A stretch of 33,324 nucleotides of DNA from a virus (IMGVR_UViG_2778261568_000008:1-33324), one strand, 5' to 3'; shown: positions 10,132-33,324, numbered from the stretch's first letter. Notes: a model not told the origin generated them from the sequence alone. Translations and numbers: made by a program.

Positions 10132-10455
10132 ATGAAGATGCCAGAAAAACATGACCTGTTAGCCGCCATTCTCGCGGCAAAGGAACAAGGCATCGGGGCA
10201 ATCCTTGCGTTTGCAATGGCGTACCTTCGCGGCAGATATAATGGCGGTGCGTTTACAAAAACAGTAATCGACGCAACGATGTGCGCCATTATCGCCTGGT
10301 TCATTCGTGACCTTCTCGACTTCGCCGGACTAAGTAGCAATCTCGCTTATATAACGAGCGTGTTCATCGGCTACATCGGTACTGACTCGATTGGTTCGCT
10401 TATCAAACGCTTCGCTGCTAAAAAAGCCGGAGTAGAAGATGGTGGAAATCAATAA
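10132..10455 (+). CDS. S: Class I holin S (dual-start Met1-Lys2-Met3)
   Basis: Lambda S-like sequence with three TM segments and MKM dual-start motif. Confidence 0.95.
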
Positions 10456-10915
10456 TCAACGTAAGGCGTTCCTCGATATGCTGGCATGGTCAGAGGGAAC
10501 TGATAACGGACGTCAGAAAACCAGAAATCATGGTTATGACGTCATTGTAGGAGGAGAGCTATTCACTGATTACTCCGATCACCCTCGCAAACTTGTCACG
10601 CTAAACCCCAAACTCAAATCAACAGCCGCCGGACGCTACCAGCTTCTTTCCCGTTGGTGGGATGCCTACCGCAAGCAGCTTGGCCTGAAAGACTTCTCTC
10701 CCAAAAGCCAGGACGCTGTGGCACTGCAGCAGATTAAGGAGCGTGGCGCTTTACCGATGATTGATCGCGGTGATATCCGTCAGGCTATCGATCGTTGCAG
10801 CAATATCTGGGCTTCACTTCCGGGGGCTGGTTATGGTCAGTTCGAGCATAAGGCTGACAGCCTGATTGCAAAATTCAAAGAAGCGGGTGGAACGGTCAGA
10901 GAGATTGAGGTATGA
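10439..10915 (+). CDS. R: Endolysin R (lytic transglycosylase)
   Basis: Lambda R-like sequence over the full length; start overlaps the end of S. Confidence 0.95.
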
Positions 10916-11379
10916 GCAGAGTAACCGCGATTATCTCCGCTCTGGTTATCTGTATCATCGTCTGCCTGTCATGGGCTGTTAATCATTACCGTGATAACGC
11001 CATTACCTACAAAGCCCAGCGCGACAAAAATGCCAGAGAACTGAAGCTGGCGAACGCGGCAATTACTGACATGCAGATGCGTCAGCGTGATGTTGCTGCG
11101 CTCGATGCAAAATACACGAAGGAGTTAGCTGATGCGAAAGCTGAAAATGATGCTCTTCTGCGGAAGCTTGATAATGGTGGTCGGGTGCTCGTCAAAGGAA
11201 AATGCCCTGTGCCATCCTCAGCCGAAACCTCCAGCGCCTCCGGCATGGGCAATGATGCCACCGTCGAACTCTCTCCAGTTGCTGGACGAAACGTTCTCGG
11301 TATCCGGGACGGAATCATCAGCGACCAAACAGCACTGAGAACGCTTCAGGAATACATCAGGACGCAATGCCTTCGATGA
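10912..11379 (+). CDS. Rz: Spanin inner-membrane subunit Rz
   Basis: N-terminal TM segment and coiled coil; the N-terminal half matches lambda Rz, the C-terminal half diverges. Confidence 0.9.
11132..11338 (+). CDS. Rz1: Spanin outer-membrane lipoprotein Rz1, embedded in the +1 frame of Rz
   Basis: Lipobox VVGC after a signal sequence and a proline-rich mature region ([11 protein letters not shown]); entirely inside Rz. Confidence 0.75.
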
Positions 11380-11678
11380 TAGCGATAATTTTACTCATCA
11401 TCCTTCACATCTGGCTCTGTAGACAGGGTGGTGATCACTTCTGGAGTGAATCCAGATTAAACATCTCATTGCTGATGCTTGATATTGAGCATCTGGCGCG
11501 CGGTAAGGGGCTGCGTTGAGATAAGAGCCAGTCATTACAAAGCCTATCTACGGGTGGGCTTGATAATGAAACCGGGATTTATTCTGGGCAACCAGTTACG
11601 GCAGTACAGCGAAACAACCCAAGCCAGAAAGTGGGGAAATAACACTGGCAGCCACTGAAAGATGAACCTCCAGCCTTA

Positions 11679-24512: not shown

Positions 24513-25928
24513 ATGGCTACGTGGCAACAGGGTATTAATTCTGGTGGTTTTCTGGCTGGCATCGGTACGCAAAATGAGAATGCGCCAAAGGCAAGCGACA
24601 TTAACGCAACGCTTGGTCTGATCCGCGAAAACAATGAACTGGCTCGCTCAGGTGCAAATAACGTTGGTCTGACCGCGTTACGTGGTCTGGCTGGAGTTGC
24701 TGATATTTACAATCAGGAACAGCAACAGAAAGCTATTAGTGCGTTCAATAAGGTTCACGCTGATGCATGGGCTTCTGGTGATCCATCGGGACTATTTAAG
24801 TTTGCCCAGGAAAATCCAGCGTTTGTTGCACAGGCACAACAGGCGTTTTCCGGTCTTAATGAGCAGCAACGCAACGATATGGGTGATTTAGCCATGAGGG
24901 CTAACGTCGCTCTTTCTCAGGGACCGGAAGCCTACAGTAAATTCATTACTGACAACAAGGACAGGTTAAATCGCGTGGGGGCGAATGCTGACTGGATGAT
25001 TCAGACAGGTATCCAGAATCCAGAGCAGCTATCACACATGCTGACTACTATGTCTCTCGGTGCGCTTGGACCAGAAAAGGCGTTTGCTGTTCAGGACAAG
25101 ATGGCTGGTCGTGAAATTGACCGAGGCAAACTGGCAGAGACAATCCGCAGCAATCAGGCTGGAGAAGCACTTCAGGCGAGAGGGCAAAACCTTTCCTATC
25201 AGTCAGCAATGACTGGACACAATATCGCAGCACAACGCTTGGCTCTGGATCAGCAAGAGTTCGGGTTTAAGATGCAGCAAGCGCAGGAAAAGGCTCAGCA
25301 GTTGATTAGCGAAGCACCTAAGCTGTCAGTAAACATGGAAAAAGGCATCGAGACGGCTGTAAACAATGCCACAGCATCATCAAACTCAGCCAATTCCATG
25401 AGTGCGCTTGCTCAACAGTTCAGAGCAGAAAAACCAACGACAGGTTTGTTCGGTAACGCACAGAACATGTTCGCAAAACTTACCGGAAGCGATACGACAT
25501 TGCGTGATTTGCGCATTCGCCAAAATGCCCTTGTTAACAGTCAGGTTCTTAAATTCCTACCTCCCGGCCCAGCAACGGATAAAGACGTTGAGATCGTTCG
25601 ACAGGGTGCGCCAACTGACATGGATAACCCTGAGACGGTCGCAAGATGGCTTGATGCAATGGCAAACCTTGAGCGACGAAACGCGCAGTTTAATGAGTTT
25701 AAAGCCGAGTGGATGAGCGCGAATGGCAACCCTGGACAATCGCGTAATGGCGGTCAGATATTGGGGTTGGATGTTAAAAAAGGTGAATCATTGGGGAGTG
25801 CCGTTAAGCGGTATATGTCAATGAATACTGACGCAGCGCCAGCACAAGATTCGACACCTTCAGGTGAACCACGGAATCAGGTTGGATCATATACCTCAAA
25901 ATCAGGCATTCAATTTACGGTGGAATGA
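24513..25928 (+). CDS. Ejection protein (P22 gp20-like)
   Basis: 471 aa in the expected position. Confidence 0.7.
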
Positions 25929-27766
25929 TGAAAGTAACTGCAAACGGTAAGACATTTACCTTTCCTGATGGTACGAGCACCGAAGATATTGGCACCGCCA
26001 TTGATGAGTATTTTGCTGGTCAGGCTGTTCAGCAACAAACAGTTAATCAGGCCAATAATGCACCAACACGGGAAGAACCATCATTGATGCAACAAGCTGG
26101 CGATTGGCTCACTGGTGGTCAAAGTGCAGGGCAAATTGCAGAACAGGCTGGTCGTGGTCTGGTAAACATACCATTTGACGTATTGCAGGGCGGCGCAAGT
26201 CTGATTAATGCAATCAGCCAGGGGCTTGGTGGACCCAAGGTTTTGGATGATGTTTATCGTCCAGTAGACAGACCGACAGACCCCTACGCGCAAGCCGGTG
26301 AAACAATTGGTGGGTATTTAGTTCCAGGAGTTGGAACGGCAGGAAGCATGGCTATGGGATCACTGGCAGAGGCCGCAAATCAGAAAGGCGATTTCGCACA
26401 AAATGCAGCTAAAAATGCCGGAGTTAACCTTGCCGCTCAGGGTGTTCTTTCCGCAGCAGCAAAGGGAATAGGGCGTGGAATAACGGCTATAAAAGGTGAT
26501 ATTGCGCCAGAAGTAGCGAAGAAAATTGCCACATCAGAATCGATGGGCGTGACACCAATGACATCTGATGTTATCCCGCCGAAAAATGCTTTCACTCGCG
26601 GCCTTACTCAGGATGCCGAGGGGGCTTTGCTCGGGACAGGCTCAAAGCGAGCGGAGCAATATGCAACGCGTAGTAAGCTGGTAAGCAATTATTTTGACCG
26701 TTTTGGTGAGTACAACCCTGATGATGTGGTGAAATCTCTGACCACCACGTTAAGGGGGCGGAAGGATGCTGCTGGCGCTGTTATCAATGACGTCACCAAT
26801 AAAATGGGTAATGCCGCAGTTGATACTACAAATACCATGAATGCTCTGAATACAGCGATCGCAAGACAGGAACGGCTTGGGACGTCTGCCAATCAAAGCC
26901 TGCTTACATCCTTGCGTAACCTACGTGAAGAATTAGCAAACCCTGCAACTGATTTGGATGTTACGTTTGATCTCTTGCGTCAGCACAGAACAGCATTTAG
27001 ATCTAATGTTCAGGGAGATGCTATGGTCTTCCCCAACCAGGCAAAAGCAGCTACCAATATGGTAGAGAATGCAATGTCAAAAGACCTTCGTAACGCAGTT
27101 GCAAAAAACCTCGGTGCGTCAGACGCAGCAAAATACCTTAAAGCAAATTCCGATTATGCAAACGTTTATAATAAGGTGCTTAATAAAAACATTGCCAACA
27201 AGCTCAACAAGGCAAGCAGTGAAGCCAGTCCTGAACTTATAAATACCGTTGTATTAAGCAGAAAACCATCTGACGTGAAACGAATCTGGAGCGCACTGGA
27301 TGATAAGGGGAAAGATGCTATGCGTGCAGCTTACGTCAGCAAAATAGCGGAAAAGGCCGGTGACTCTCCAGCCAAGTTCATCACTGAAGTTAATAAGCTG
27401 AAATCTCAGTCAGGTGGTGAAATTTACAACACTATTTTTTCTGGAAAGCACATGAAAGAGCTTGATGCTCTTCATGAAGTTCTACAGCAAACAGCAAGGT
27501 CAGACACCGCAAATGTAGTAACTCAGACGGGGCAATCGCAAGCCAACAGGATAAGGACGATTGGCGCAACTGCGACCCTTGGCGTATCAATGGGGCTTGA
27601 GGCTGGTTTTGGTGCAATGATGCGCTTGTATGAGTCCAAAGCAGCAAGAAACATGCTTCTCCGCCTTGCAAACGTCAAGCCTGGAACTCCGGCATATGAG
27701 CGAGCGTTAAATCAGGCTGCTAACGCCGTTCGCCCTCTCCTAACTAACGAAGCTACCAGGCAGTAG
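25925..27766 (+). CDS. Ejection protein (P22 gp16-like)
   Basis: 613 aa in the expected position, overlapping the previous stop. Confidence 0.7.
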
Positions 27767-27785: not shown

Positions 27786-28115
27786 CTATTTAATTCTCTT
27801 TTCAATGGCTGCAATTATTGCTTTTCCTGATGTTTCAGGAGATTTTGTAGCCATATAAGACGAAAAAATCATGTCGGTCATTCTTTCATAACTTACTATT
27901 TCCCACTTAGCCAATGCATGGGACAGTTTGTAGTTGTCATCAGTTAGTGCCCTTATGGAATTTTTTAAGTGTTTATTCTCTTCTGTTAATCGCGCAATTT
28001 TTGTATCAATTTCATGTGAGCGATCTAATTCCTTAACCTGTTTCTTGAGGGCAGCTAACCCTGCATATAGTACGCAACAGGATATCCCAAGAGCGAGTAC
28101 TACTATTTCTAACAC
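27786..28115 (-). CDS. Membrane-anchored coiled-coil protein (109 aa)
   Basis: N-terminal TM segment, then heptad-rich sequence; AAGGAGG RBS; AT-rich; at the P22 sieA position. Confidence 0.6.
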   Translation of the reverse strand: MLEIVVLALGISCCVLYAGLAALKKQVKELDRSHEIDTKIARLTEENKHLKNSIRALTDDNYKLSHALAKWEIVSYERMTDMIFSSYMATKSPETSGKAIIAAIEKRIK

Positions 28116-28233
28116 ACCAACCTCCTTAGTTTTTCGCAGGATACCATGAAAAAAGTAAACATCTTTTGCCTACTTCACATTTGAATGGTTTGTCATTAGG
28201 ATGTTTCCGGTTTTTTCAAATATGGAAATTGAT

Positions 28234-28653
28234 ATGAAGAGGATTATCGGCGTTGTTGCTGGCGCTATATTGTTATCTGGGTGCGCAACTATTGTTGGTG
28301 ACGAAACACAGCTCGTGCAAGTGAACAGCAATCCTTCCGGTGCGAGCTTTAAAGTAAAAGACGAATCAGGCGTGATTGTTGCGCAAGGCAAGACCCCGCA
28401 AGGAGTAAGTCTTGCCAAGTCAGATGGTAGTTATTTTGGCAAAAAGAGCTACCAGATCACTATGGAAAAGGATGGGTACGAACCAGTTACCCTGCCAATC
28501 AAAGCCAATGCTAATGGTTGGTATATTGGTGGAAACCTTGTGTTTGGTGGGTTAATTGGTTGGCTTGCTGTAGATCCTTTTAATGGTGGGATGTATACCT
28601 TGAAGCCAAAAGAGGCAAACGCATCTCTTATACCATCAACAAAGCAAGACTAA
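28234..28653 (+). CDS. Lipoprotein (about 139 aa, lipobox LSGC)
   Basis: Signal peptide MKRIIGVVAGAILLSGC; start may instead be the ATG at 28222 or 28201. Confidence 0.75.
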   Translation: MKRIIGVVAGAILLSGCATIVGDETQLVQVNSNPSGASFKVKDESGVIVAQGKTPQGVSLAKSDGSYFGKKSYQITMEKDGYEPVTLPIKANANGWYIGGNLVFGGLIGWLAVDPFNGGMYTLKPKEANASLIPSTKQD

Positions 28654-28661
28654 TAAATAGG

Positions 28662-28685
28662 ACCCACCTTCAGGTGGGTTTTTTG
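28662..28685. terminator. Terminator hairpin between the convergent lipoprotein and mnt genes
   Basis: ACCCACC / GGTGGGT stem with 4-nt loop, TTTTTT on the plus strand. Confidence 0.6.
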
Positions 28686-28921
28686 TACAAATCCTTCAGC
28701 GTATCAAACACCATCTTCTTAACAAGCTCTGACTGCTCATCAGCGAGTCGTTCTGCATCGTCGCGATATCCAGTCACAGGCGATGGTTTTGATAGAGCAT
28801 CTTGGACGATTTGTAACAACTCGGAGTTCATTGATCTCCCATTCGCCTCCGCCCTGAATTTTAATTTCTCCCTTACTTCCATAGGCATACGGAAGTTAAA
28901 GTGCGGATCATCTCTAGCCAT
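28670..28921 (-). CDS. mnt: Mnt repressor (ribbon-helix-helix)
   Basis: 83 aa matching my recollection of P22 Mnt; its cognate 17-bp operator lies upstream. Confidence 0.9.
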   Translation of the reverse strand: MARDDPHFNFRMPMEVREKLKFRAEANGRSMNSELLQIVQDALSKPSPVTGYRDDAERLADEQSELVKKMVFDTLKDLYKKPT

Positions 28922-29173: not shown

Positions 29174-29176
29174 AGT

Positions 29177-29246
29177 TGAAGCCCCAACTGCGGGAACAGT
29201 CAGGGCTTCGGTTGTCAGTAAATCCGTGGAGAAAAACCAACATGAA
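29177..29246 (-). ncRNA. Possible sar-type antisense RNA across the arc-ant junction
   Basis: In P22 a short antisense RNA covers the ant RBS; the same intercistronic arrangement and a GAAGCCC / GGGCTTC inverted repeat (29178-29209) are present. Boundaries are approximate. Confidence 0.3.
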
Positions 29247-30162: not shown

Positions 30163-30187
30163 ACCCAGCTTCGGCTGGGTTTTTTTA
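30163..30187 (+). terminator. Rho-independent terminator after ant
   Basis: ACCCAGC-TTCG-GCTGGGT hairpin followed by TTTTTTT. Confidence 0.65.
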
Positions 30188-30243
30188 TGCCCAAAATTCA
30201 CCGTAGCTACGCTGCGGCGATTCCTTGTATCTGGAGCAATGAA

Positions 30244-31680
30244 ATGTCAGATATCACCGCAAATGTTGTGGTAAGCATGCCTTCGCAACTCTTCACTATG
30301 GCTCGTTCTTTTAAAGCCGTAGCCAATGGCAAAATTTATATCGGTAAAATTGACACTGACCCAGTAAATCCTGAAAACCAGATTCAGGTTTATGTGGAGA
30401 ATGAAGACGGTTCTCACATTCCTGTTTCTCAACCAATCATCATTAACGCCGCTGGTTACCCTGTATATAACGGACAGATTGCCAAGTTCGTAACTGTGCA
30501 AGGCCATTCTATGGCTGTTTATGATGCGTATGGTACACAGCAGTTCTATTTTCCGAATGTGCTGAAGTATGACCCGGATCAGTTAAGAGTAGTTTTGACT
30601 GGACAGTCTGGTGATGGACTTAATAATTTTTATGCTGGCTCAGGATGGACTGGTTCAGATGCAGCTGGTGACAATATTTATAACAATGAAACTATCATAT
30701 ATAAAAATGCTACACGACAGAGATTCTCCATACCAGAAACACCAATTCCAGATCCCATTATTTGGCTGGAAAAAATTAGTTCTGCAACTAGGGATGACGG
30801 CATCAAACGATGGGATCAGGGGGTAATTTATAACTCTTTGCGCAAGGTGTCAGGAAGTGCATATACATGCACAACTACAAGTGTTGCTAAGCATGAGGGA
30901 GGGAATGGGCATTCAATTGGTCACCACATGCGTGGAGAATCAAGAAATCCGCAAGCCGAAACATGGGGGGGGTGGTCATATGGTGCAGTATTAGGAGATG
31001 CAGTGCAGAATGGAGCGATTAGCACTATTGCACATGAATTTAATCTGAATAATCGAGGTCCCGATAAAGGATGGATGGAGAATGCACAGCAAGGATCTGT
31101 AAGAGGGTTGGTATGTGTAACTCAGGATAAAAGCAATCCAGTAACACAGATGATTACCATCGGAAGAGGGAGTGAAGCTCCAAATGGTTATATCTGGACA
31201 GGAATGTTGTTTAGAGGTAATTCTATTTCCACTCCAACAGAGGAACTAACCGAGGTAGGTAATGGCGAATACATCAGACTTGAGGGATCTCTATCATCTA
31301 GAGCTGCAAACGGCATTAGATTTAGAACAAATTATTTTAGGAGTGGAATTTCATTTTCTGAAGCTGGATTTTCAAACAACTGCGCAATTTTGATGGGCGA
31401 CAATCAACGAATTACGGTAGGAACGGGCCCGGCAAATACAACACATTTGAGTTTCAACAGGGCTGAGAACTGGGCTAACTTCAACAACTTAAGAATACGA
31501 CTTAATGGCAATCAAGTTATTTCAGAGAGGAGGACGGGATGGGGATCGCCAACCGGCACCGTATCCCGAGCAGCATTTAACTCTGGAACAATAACTCACG
31601 AAGATTTAGCAAAGGTAGTTGCAGCATTAATTCAGGACTTACATGCTTCGACCGGGCATGGATTAATTGGTTTAACTTAA
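30244..31680 (+). CDS. Tailspike protein: P22 gp9-type N-terminal head-binding domain plus a different C-terminal receptor-binding domain
   Basis: N-terminal 110 aa ([11 protein letters not shown] ... VLKYDPDQ) resemble the P22 tailspike head-binding domain; the remaining 370 aa do not resemble the P22 beta-helix. Confidence 0.85.
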
Positions 31681-32115: not shown

Positions 32116-32147
32116 AAAAAAGGCGGGATTTCCCGCCTTATTTTATT
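32116..32147. terminator. Bidirectional terminator between the small ORFs and the convergent glycosyltransferase gene
   Basis: GGCGGGA-TT-TCCCGCC hairpin flanked by A-rich and T-rich runs on both sides. Confidence 0.6.
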
Positions 32148-33324
32148 GGAAGTATGACTCTGTTTTCTTTCTGTTGAGTTTTGAACCAGTGCCTTTATAT
32201 CCGGCAGTAACATGAAATTCCCACTCGTTACGCTGCAATGCATCTTTGGTTAATCCGTAGAATCTCACTAAATATCCGCAGTCCAGATTGTAATCTGGGA
32301 ACTTCGCTACAACATCTGAGCGCTGAATTTTTTCCTCCAGAAAACCGGGCAGGATCTCCTGTCCTATGCGTAAGTTAAAGAACTGCTGCTCAACGCCCTC
32401 AGTGGGCACGCACCATCCTGTGAAAATGCATGACCCGTCATCTTCTCTCACCCTGTCTACGTAACCATGCCACGTTATTCTACTTTCATCGCGCTCAACC
32501 GTTAATGCTTGCTCCAGATTCAGCCCCATACCCTTCAGGTATTCATAAACTCCATCCATAATAAAGAACTTAGACGGGTTGATAGATTTCGAAGCTGCAT
32601 GCATATCGTAATATTCAGTCTGAGTCATCAGGAACTTTTTGACTAAATGATGTCTCGCCCCTTTGAATGCCTTCAGAGCCTCAATATCATTGACGTCAAC
32701 AAGACCCTCCAGTTTATTCCTGGCGCTGGCGATATAGTCATCATAGTTCTTATGGTGGAAGTGAAGATAAATGATATCCGTATCAACTTGCTGGCCTGAC
32801 TCAACCTCACCGCGATGGAAGCCATTACCCAGCGCAGTGATTCTTGATTTAGGGAAGAACACTTTCTCAGGCTTAGGGCTTAACGCAAATTCTTTTGGGT
32901 TAAGTGGATGGTTGCCATATGTATATTTAATTTTAAATGTGGCGTCGGTATCTATATATTTTGATAATTCATTCAACACATCATTTTTAGACAGCGACAC
33001 CTTACCCTTTGAAAATTCAACGCCGACAAACTCATCACAATCAAGTGGCATCATAAAATCATAGCCATGAGAATTCTTTAATTCTTCGTATTTGTCTACG
33101 AAGTAGATATGTCTGGTATTGAAATCATCAAAGGTGCTTCTGTCATAAACGACATTCATCCCTTTTCCCGAATATTCCTTCAGAATGTTAAGGCATCGCT
33201 CATCTGCTGACCCGTTATCGTAGACGTATAAATTTTCAAGGCCAAAAAGCTCAGCATGATGCAGTATCCATGGCTCAAGAAGCCGGTACTCATCCTTTTG
33301 CATCATCAAAACAGCAACTTTCAT
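32143..33324 (-). CDS. Family-2 (GT-A fold) glycosyltransferase, 393 aa
   Basis: VYDNGSAD and DCDEF (DxD) motifs; no obvious TM segments; the start codon is the last three bases of the window, so the promoter lies outside. Confidence 0.85.
   Translation of the reverse strand: MKVAVLMMQKDEYRLLEPWILHHAELFGLENLYVYDNGSADERCLNILKEYSGKGMNVVYDRSTFDDFNTRHIYFVDKYEELKNSHGYDFMMPLDCDEFVGVEFSKGKVSLSKNDVLNELSKYIDTDATFKIKYTYGNHPLNPKEFALSPKPEKVFFPKSRITALGNGFHRGEVESGQQVDTDIIYLHFHHKNYDDYIASARNKLEGLVDVNDIEALKAFKGARHHLVKKFLMTQTEYYDMHAASKSINPSKFFIMDGVYEYLKGMGLNLEQALTVERDESRITWHGYVDRVREDDGSCIFTGWCVPTEGVEQQFFNLRIGQEILPGFLEEKIQRSDVVAKFPDYNLDCGYLVRFYGLTKDALQRNEWEFHVTAGYKGTGSKLNRKKTESYFQ

Follow-up and report, generated by a model that had tools for sequence, protein, structure and literature searches.

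We analysed a stretch of viral DNA of 33,324 nucleotides (IMGVR_UViG_2778261568_000008:1-33324, hereafter the window), which is a P22-like (Lederbergvirus-type) prophage of Escherichia coli, and concentrated on two small divergent genes lying between the ejection gene 16 and mnt: orfA on the minus strand and a lipoprotein gene on the plus strand, separated by a spacer of 118 bp. Both are already in the databases as hypothetical proteins, and an earlier note on this DNA had placed them in this arrangement and at these coordinates, which our analysis confirms. The stop codons of orfA and gene 16 are 19 bp apart. The 1,051 bp around the locus recur in ten complete E. coli chromosomes with 99.5-99.8% identity, and in E. 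coli strain CFSAN004176 the identical prophage adjoins intS and a tRNA-Arg gene. The guanine-cytosine (GC) content is 36.7% in orfA and 33.9% in the spacer, compared with 44.8% in the lipoprotein gene, 47.6% in gene 16 and 47.3% in the whole window, so that the earlier description of an AT-rich pair holds for orfA and the spacer and hardly applies to the lipoprotein gene.

To explore how orfA is expressed, we compared the DNA around its start with that of other P22-like phages. The gene begins with GTG (28115-28113), and the ribosome-binding site (RBS) AAGGAGG lies 5 nt upstream (28127-28121). This start codon closes a 42-bp element (TTTTTTCATGGTATCCTGC..AAAACTAAGGAGGTTGGTGTG) that also contains an extended -10 (TG at 28146-28145, TATCCT at 28143-28138) and that ends in the same way in the start codons of P22 sieA and of epsilon34 gp14, which is of the HkcB type. 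The extended -10 TCATGnTAnnnT and an ACTAAGGrGG RBS are retained in the orfA homologues of Klebsiella and of locus L095 despite unrelated flanks. The earlier placement of the locus at the P22 sieA position is therefore borne out and sharpened: because the start codon, RBS and extended -10 are identical, orfA is by its position an allele of sieA, with expression signals in common. Leavitt et al. (2024, PMC10883804) showed that P22 is excluded by sieA in single chromosomal copy when the gene is preceded by 85 bp of upstream DNA, inside which the putative PsieA lies. Since 85 bp upstream suffices for sieA, it is reasonable to expect that orfA is expressed in the prophage apart from the late operon; the lipoprotein gene, for which the earlier note had proposed the same independence, has its own promoter-like site and terminator.

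The element was then used in a scan of IMG/VR, requiring an exact match to 26 specified element bases, which returned more than 119 contigs (loci L097-L215). Among the matches listed, to which all cassette counts given here refer, the open reading frames (ORFs) directly behind the element in P22-like contigs form at least 11 unrelated clusters by BLAST clustering: orfA (30 loci), sp129, encoding a 129-aa signal-peptide protein (30 loci), the HkcB type (21 loci), SieA type A (13 loci) and seven rarer types of 62-149 aa (2-7 loci each). Hydropathy shows a hydrophobic N-terminal segment in nine of these types, and inspection a signal peptide in a tenth. An N-terminal flank free of lysine and arginine (K/R) and a K/R-rich C-terminal flank are common to orfA, SieA, the HkcB type and the cassette tm106, which has a single transmembrane (TM) segment. 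Cassette type and the type of the neighbouring gp16 C-terminus are correlated, and orfA, sieA and sp129 adjoin the same type; SieA-escape mutations map to the gp16 C-terminus (PMC10883804). That the 'ant moron' region is variable has been known since 2008, the sixteen genomes compared then representing ten types (Villafane et al. 2008, PMC2629481). In the literature on the region we found no prior description of one constant promoter/RBS/start element behind sieA, hkcB-type, orfA and many other cassettes, nor of slot occupants that are almost all envelope-targeted. Two of the other cassettes were considered separately: sp129 (MKKVLAAMFLFISFGATAECWVVGD...), as common as orfA, has no Pfam match, and a 62-aa membrane-protein cassette (m62) was compared with phage L orf62 and the identity was rejected.

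Features of the orfA/lipoprotein locus and of related genes in the window
Feature	Position	Strand	Remarks
Rz-like spanin of the window	10912-11379		E 1.6e-74
Gene 20	24513-25928		left of gene 16
Gene 16, ejection protein	25925-27766	+	PHROG 770, DNA transfer protein; convergent with orfA
orfA, 109 aa	27786-28115	-	PHROG 8100; called by the Prokaryotic Genome Annotation Pipeline (PGAP) in identical E. coli prophages
42-bp expression element TTTTTTCATGGTATCCTGCGAAAAACTAAGGAGGTTGGTGTG	28113-28154	-	common to P22 sieA and epsilon34 gp14
hkcC remnant (ST160 Orf64)	28147-28185	+	12 codons then stop; first six, MKKVNI (28147-28164), homologous
Putative lipoprotein promoter, sigma-70-like, TTCACA-17-TAGGAT	28174-28202	+	9/12 match
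Lipoprotein gene, 139 aa	28234-28653	+	PHROG 6823; 97% identical to epsilon34 gp15
Intrinsic terminator GGACCCACC-TTCA-GGTGGGTTT + T-run	28661-28685 (hairpin 28661-28679)		about -14 kcal/mol
mnt	28670-28921	-	right edge of the cassette region
sar antisense RNA, immI region	29174-29241	-	Rfam RF00262, 95.6 bits

The orfA product has a single hydrophobic segment (residues 4-22), in agreement with the single-TM protein with an AAGGAGG RBS described earlier, with K/R absent in front of it and occurring four times among the next 15 residues. By the positive-inside rule, a K/R-free N-flank and a K/R-rich C-flank predict an N-out/C-in topology, with the coiled coil and the conserved domain probably in the cytoplasm; the periplasmic coiled coil implied by the earlier note is thus not supported, and the predicted placement is that of most of the non-membrane mass of SieA. 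The AlphaFold2 model (mean predicted local distance difference test score 84.7) consists of a long helix (residues 2-90), a loop and a second helix (97-108). A leucine zipper occupies approximately residues 36-71, with L43/L50/L57/L64 at d and I40/N47/I54/N61 at a positions, and these positions are invariant or nearly so across the family. Zippers of the GCN4 type tend towards parallel dimers when Asn stands at a positions. Conservation is strongest in residues 70-109, a domain (KWEIVSYERMTDMIFSSYMATKSPETSG..IIAAIEKR) whose 40-residue pattern KWEI.SYE.MTDMIF.SYMAT.SPETSG..IIAAIE.R is invariant even in homologues of about 50% identity. For this part the ratio of non-synonymous to synonymous substitution rates (dN/dS, or omega) against ST160 and SI8 is 0.12-0.24, indicating purifying selection; for residues 1-69 (27909-28115; TM segment and zipper) it is 0.9-1.07 against the same two, calculated from small counts of 18 non-synonymous and 5-6 synonymous changes, which would fit relaxed constraint as well as diversifying selection.

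Full-length profile matches were obtained to two unannotated families, PHROG 8100 for orfA (E 1.4e-69, residues 2-109 of 109) and PHROG 6823 for the lipoprotein (E 2.1e-85). Neither protein has an above-threshold match in Pfam, NCBIfam, PADLOC or PDB sequence searches. Against the PADLOC 2.0 defence profiles, the only orfA match is of the coiled-coil type (LmuB, E 0.0014) and the lipoprotein has none. Homology to virion structural proteins, which the earlier note had named as one finding that would speak against an exclusion role, was detected for neither protein in profile and family searches or in BLAST comparisons with all window ORFs, and the latter, directed at mimicry of ejection proteins, gave nothing below E 0.1.

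Among the other cassettes, the HkcB type (HK620 HkcB, epsilon34 gp14) resembles orfA in several ways: it occupies the same slot behind the same element, has about 107 aa and has a long coiled coil after an N-terminal TM segment. The two share 33% identity over 67 aa, restricted to TM and coiled coil (E 6e-6, pairwise only). However, the HkcB type lacks the C-terminal domain that defines orfA, and the two fall into separate BLAST clusters and adjoin different gp16 C-terminal types.

Analysis of the distribution of orfA indicates a small family confined to one kind of phage. It comprises 14 clusters in 5.8 billion proteins, and a profile search among 1.84 billion representatives gave 5 clusters at E<1e-10 and no remote homologues beyond P22-like prophages. 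All contexts examined, which cover Salmonella phages, one Klebsiella chromosome and two metagenomic contigs including that of the remotest, profile-only homologue P0137, are P22-like prophages in which orfA is convergent with gene 16 and sometimes overlaps its 3' end; in the Klebsiella and L095 homologues (about 50% identical) the overlap is 29-38 nt. Among the Salmonella P22-like phages, 13 records encode the gene; those of ST160 and SE1 (GU573886, NC_014900, NC_011802, DQ003260) have it intact, with 82.6% identity, and leave it unannotated. An ATG-only ORF finder would see about 31 of its codons, because the start is GTG and no Met occurs inside the protein before residue 79. In the Klebsiella quasipneumoniae prophage (AP021950), a gene (L092 5593-5904) for a 103-aa signal-peptide protein without Pfam match lies upstream of the orfA homologue, on the same strand and with a hairpin between, and is a further envelope-targeted moron of the region.

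There are two alternative explanations for orfA. The first is that the protein is made by the prophage for another job, such as abortive infection or another defence, or control of its own induction or of ejection-protein handling. This would suit a predicted membrane-anchored cytoplasmic dimer with a small conserved head, which is unlike SieA, the structural heterogeneity of the slot cassettes, which include secreted proteins and one soluble protein, and the omega of the N-terminal two-thirds. We regard it as improbable, since every homologue is tied to the 3' end of gene 16, the sieA expression signals are in use and no PADLOC family other than LmuB is matched.

The second is that the locus acts as an RNA, the transcript being antisense to the 3' end of gene 16 and silencing the late mRNA of incoming relatives. 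The closeness of the two stop codons and the overlaps seen in Klebsiella and L095 point in this direction. In addition, no good minus-strand terminator was found within about 300 bp after orfA, and because no terminator intervenes, the transcript must enter the gene 16 3' end. The model comes from BTP1, where STnc6030, described as an 'antisense RNA' of the same locus, excludes BTP1 when expressed, and where every single-nucleotide polymorphism that allows escape is a missense change within the C-terminus of gp16 (PMC7067206). Nevertheless, in orfA the strong RBS is conserved, and the protein domain is invariant despite synonymous saturation (dS 1.8-2.4, omega about 0.2); such selection on the protein counts against RNA as the main product. 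Furthermore, the SieA construct works with only 22 bp downstream of its stop codon (PMC10883804). An RNA function is accordingly very unlikely.

The BTP1 locus itself deserves a comment. The STnc6030 study screened only ORFs of more than 60 aa (PMC7067206), and the STnc6030 region (L217, LT714109.2, 14012-14110, minus strand) covers a 23-codon ORF with TATAAT and GGAGGG that would encode a hydrophobic peptide (MERDLLNFVFLIFGLVVGKLLFA). Among the 29 matching phage records, 25 show 83-100% conservation of this peptide and the other 4 show 60-80%, a conservation that is not independent evidence because the ORF overlaps the 3' end of gene 16. We also considered whether STnc6030 represents an unannotated orfA and rejected this, the gap between gene 16 and the tailspike gene in BTP1 being only 155 bp.

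The ORF of the divergent gene is listed as 28201-28653, and its 139-aa form begins at ATG 28234 (MKRIIGVVAGAILLSGC...), in agreement with the PGAP annotation in identical E. coli prophages and with the starts of all homologues. The earlier identification of a divergent 139-aa lipoprotein with an LSGC lipobox is corroborated by a signal peptide of residues 1-16 with n, h and c regions (MKR-IIGVVAGAILL-SGC) and by Cys17 (28282-28284), which together with the following A-T-I-V-G is invariant or nearly so in 55 homologues. With Ala at +2 and no Asp retention signal, the protein is predicted to be sorted to the outer membrane. The mature part is a folded domain of 123 residues, a beta-sandwich (25-93 and 121-131) into which a Gly-rich hydrophobic helix (95-112) is inserted. 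Upstream, a TAGGATGTTTCCGrTTTTTT block that includes the putative -10 is conserved in front of 77%-identical copies in siphovirus-type prophages (L004, L005, L007), and an intrinsic terminator follows directly after every phage-borne copy. In the window this GC-rich hairpin, with a T-run, comes after the stop of the lipoprotein gene, whose transcript it ends, and has the mnt stop codon (28670-28672) within it; the earlier note had described a hairpin terminator that the gene shares with mnt, and the same site is annotated as a terminator in epsilon34.

The protein is epsilon34 gp15, with 97% identity over all 139 residues, a 'conserved hypothetical protein' which is listed as of unknown function (Villafane et al. 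2008, PMC2629481). The comparison of the two genes gives a dN/dS of 0.047 (23.5 synonymous and 4.5 non-synonymous changes). Promoter region, terminator and mnt neighbour are also shared with epsilon34, and so is the remnant of hkcC in the spacer, a scar that marks the recombination junction where the lipoprotein moron replaced hkcC. The two phages differ in the partner, which in epsilon34 is of the HkcB type and not orfA. The gene is present as well in phages Gally and vB_EcoP-720R6. Complete hkcC (ST160 Orf64) encodes a protein of 121 aa with an HExxH motif and no Pfam match.

The lipoprotein family is much larger than that of orfA, with more than 700 clusters in Gamma- and Betaproteobacteria. 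The distant homologues are found in ordinary chromosomal settings in Erwinia/Pantoea, Photorhabdus, Lonsdalea, Halomonadaceae, Pasteurellaceae and others, and share no operon partner, the neighbours being nrdHIE/mmuPM in Erwiniaceae, murJ in Photorhabdus and mutS in Arsenophonus. The closest relatives, on the other hand, are prophage morons, captured independently at no fewer than five sites within lambdoid tail clusters: between gpT (tail chaperone) and the tape measure gene (E. coli P0061), upstream of the tape measure gene (Proteus P0072), after gpI (L004 and L007), between K and I (L008) and between tape measure and M (L013). The gpT/tape-measure slot is the site of HK97 gene 15, an exclusion gene that was the first to be named a moron and whose product is an inner-membrane protein derived from host yebO (PMC3594210). 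That the lipoprotein is a promiscuous moron found also in this slot has no prior description in the literature on the region that we could find. HK97 gp15 and the lipoprotein are alike in being small envelope proteins from chromosomal families, independently transcribed within a virion gene cluster, and in the position that gp15 shares with the paralogue P0061; they differ in sequence, which is unrelated, and in location, inner membrane for gp15 and predicted outer membrane for the lipoprotein. In E. coli HK97-like prophages such as that of ED1a (CU928162; L085, L087 and L088, about 10261-11424), the tail genes M and L also have a porin gene (Porin_1/Porin_4) between them. With the lipoprotein paralogue at the gpT/tape-measure site, these prophages have two outer-membrane morons in one tail cluster.

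This distribution leaves two explanations for the lipoprotein, both of which we consider doubtful and neither of which is placed ahead of the other. In one, it would play an exclusion role at the outer membrane, by analogy with Cor (phi80/N15), Llp (T5), TraT (F) and Bor (lambda). These are moron or plasmid outer-membrane lipoproteins placed among tail or ejection genes, and our protein resembles them in its predicted localisation, its own promoter and terminator and its position. It differs in showing no homology to them, in fold and size and in having no known receptor partner; matches to Cor are restricted to residues 1-20/30, that is, to the signal peptide (E 0.0035 and 0.19). In the other, it would be a host-fitness moron that keeps a native envelope function (outer-membrane stabilisation, stress tolerance or serum resistance, of the Bor, TraT or SlyB type) without any exclusion. 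The wide, chromosomal occurrence of the family with no phage neighbours there is consistent with this, as are the very strong purifying selection, the 55-80% identity and complete set of invariant residues that the phage copies retain, and the frequent presence of a porin moron in the paralogue-bearing E. coli prophages. It is countered by the closest copies in Enterobacteriaceae, nearly all of which are prophage-borne and have tail or ejection genes as neighbours, in common with known exclusion morons.

We next asked whether the two genes, called a divergent pair in the earlier note, act together. At the element-bearing loci, the divergent position is taken by hkcC, by the lipoprotein gene or by nothing. 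The lipoprotein occurs with six different cassettes: sp129 (18), HkcB type (11), orfA (9), m62 (4), a 75-aa cassette (1) and sieA (1). Conversely, orfA is accompanied by hkcC in 10 cases, by the lipoprotein in 9 and by no gene in 8. In complete E. coli genomes the lipoprotein allele was found in 124, orfA in 17 and both in 10. This free reassortment indicates that orfA and the lipoprotein gene are not a system, and the two appear to be independent morons. As to the usual marks of morons, we found presence or absence among related phages, an own promoter (with putative activity) and terminator, and a GC deviation that is clear for orfA and only slight for the lipoprotein gene.

The same data bear on a two-component complex spanning the envelope, like the Rz/Rz1 spanins, which the architecture superficially recalls and to whose Rz-like PHROGs orfA has weak matches (E 0.015-0.2). 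This reading is close to refuted. The genes reassort freely, unlike the co-inherited spanin pair of a lysis cassette; siphovirus prophages and chromosomes have the lipoprotein by itself; an Rz-like spanin is encoded elsewhere in the window; and the folded lipoprotein domain is not a short Pro-rich o-spanin. Moreover, an i-spanin is N-in with a periplasmic coiled coil, whereas the predicted N-out/C-in topology places that of orfA in the cytoplasm. The spanin type was rejected because of reassortment, predicted topology and the resident spanin, and the reassortment together with this spanin rules out any other two-component reading.

Taken together, these results give good support to the view that orfA and the lipoprotein gene are two independent envelope-protein morons, probably expressed in the lysogen. 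The fuller explanation that we prefer, to which we assign a probability of roughly 0.42 as a whole, is that they are two independent morons of the 'ant moron'/immI region, orfA being SieA-like and the lipoprotein bringing about a change of the outer membrane. In this explanation orfA would be an allele of a hypervariable cassette slot, of which sieA is the only studied occupant, with the sieA promoter element driving its transcription and the same RBS and GTG serving its translation. The protein would be inserted in the inner membrane with its 3-residue N-tail outside, would dimerise through its five-heptad leucine zipper and would carry the invariant C-terminal domain of about 40 residues on the cytoplasmic face. 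Its most likely role would be to keep superinfecting P22-like phages from delivering their DNA at the inner membrane, through interference with the gp16/gp20 conduit or with a host factor needed by it. For orfA by itself, a SieA-like block at the inner membrane is a tentative proposal with somewhat less than even chances, made because of the slot, the expression signals, the strict linkage to gene 16 and the membrane anchoring. The lipoprotein would be a self-contained moron (promoter, gene and terminator) captured from a chromosomal gammaproteobacterial family, lipidated at Cys17 and sorted to the outer membrane, with a possibly transthyretin-like (PEGA or carboxypeptidase-regulatory-like) beta-sandwich and a glycine-zipper-like hydrophobic helix. 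It would change the outer membrane to the benefit of the lysogen, and our leading guess is that it masks an outer-membrane step of phage entry in the manner of Cor, Llp or TraT, although exclusion is a weaker guess here than for orfA. The data show that the genes are real, where they lie, which expression signals are shared, how the genes reassort, how their families are distributed and how they are selected; expression in the lysogen, topology, dimerisation, localisation and any exclusion function are what we infer.

The likeness of orfA to P22 SieA lies in the identical slot convergent with gene 16 (in P22 between genes 16 and 9), behind PsieA and with the same GTG position, in the same adjoining gp16 C-terminal type, and in the layout of a small membrane protein, in which a K/R-free N-tail precedes the first TM segment and a K/R-rich helical segment comes after it. 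The leucine zipper and the conserved C-terminal domain are peculiar to orfA. Several points weigh against the explanation that we prefer. The two proteins have no sequence similarity (E 0.31, for SieA type A, types B and C lying outside the comparison); orfA has one TM segment and SieA three (type A) or four; and the FxRYPxEAxxFNK motif is absent from orfA by inspection. A common promoter and slot shows co-regulation, not common function, and the conclusion of Villafane et al. (2008, PMC2629481) was that the functions of these morons are not identical. The association between cassette and gp16 C-terminal type may be plain linkage, and orfA is rare, being present in 17 of 5426 complete E. coli genomes. 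As for the lipoprotein, P22-like phages use the O-antigen as primary receptor, unlike the Cor/Llp/TraT/Bor cases, and because they adsorb to it there is no obvious outer-membrane protein receptor to mask; the family members on chromosomes imply a housekeeping role in the envelope, and this might just as well be what is selected.

A bolder version, which with all its parts taken jointly we judge unlikely, is that the position behind the PsieA element is a dedicated hypervariable exclusion locus of P22-like phages. The orfA, HkcB-type and sp129 products and the other small envelope proteins would then be alternative blockers of the gp7/gp20/gp16 conduit, swapped by recombination at the constant 42-bp element and where gene 16 ends, as one side of an arms race whose other side is the hypervariable ejection proteins. 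If this were true, orfA would found a new class, that of single-pass leucine-zipper exclusion proteins acting from the cytoplasmic face, and STnc6030 of BTP1 could act through a 23-aa TM micropeptide at the same locus. If, on the contrary, neither gene excludes phage, they are an ordinary moron pair in a region already known as variable.

In orfA, an unrelated and much simpler protein than SieA stands behind the same signals and beside the same gp16 type, and at least ten further cassettes are likewise found there; these cassettes constitute a ready-made comparative panel. Our results are also of value for annotation, since orfA is absent from the annotations of several GenBank phage records, and the lipoprotein belongs to a family without name or Pfam family of which this allele alone is present in about 2% of complete E. 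coli genomes.

Regarding the neighbouring genes, the order to the right of mnt is arc, sar RNA, ant and the tailspike gene, and the mnt-arc-sar-ant module looks complete because the sar RNA was found. The tailspike ORF (30187-31680, plus strand) is short, with 497 aa, and has a P22 head-binding domain at residues 20-132; no PHROG or Pfam family matched its receptor-binding part of about 350 residues. Downstream of it lies a family-2 glycosyltransferase ORF (32143-33324, minus strand), truncated by the end of the window, which is possibly a serotype-conversion gene.

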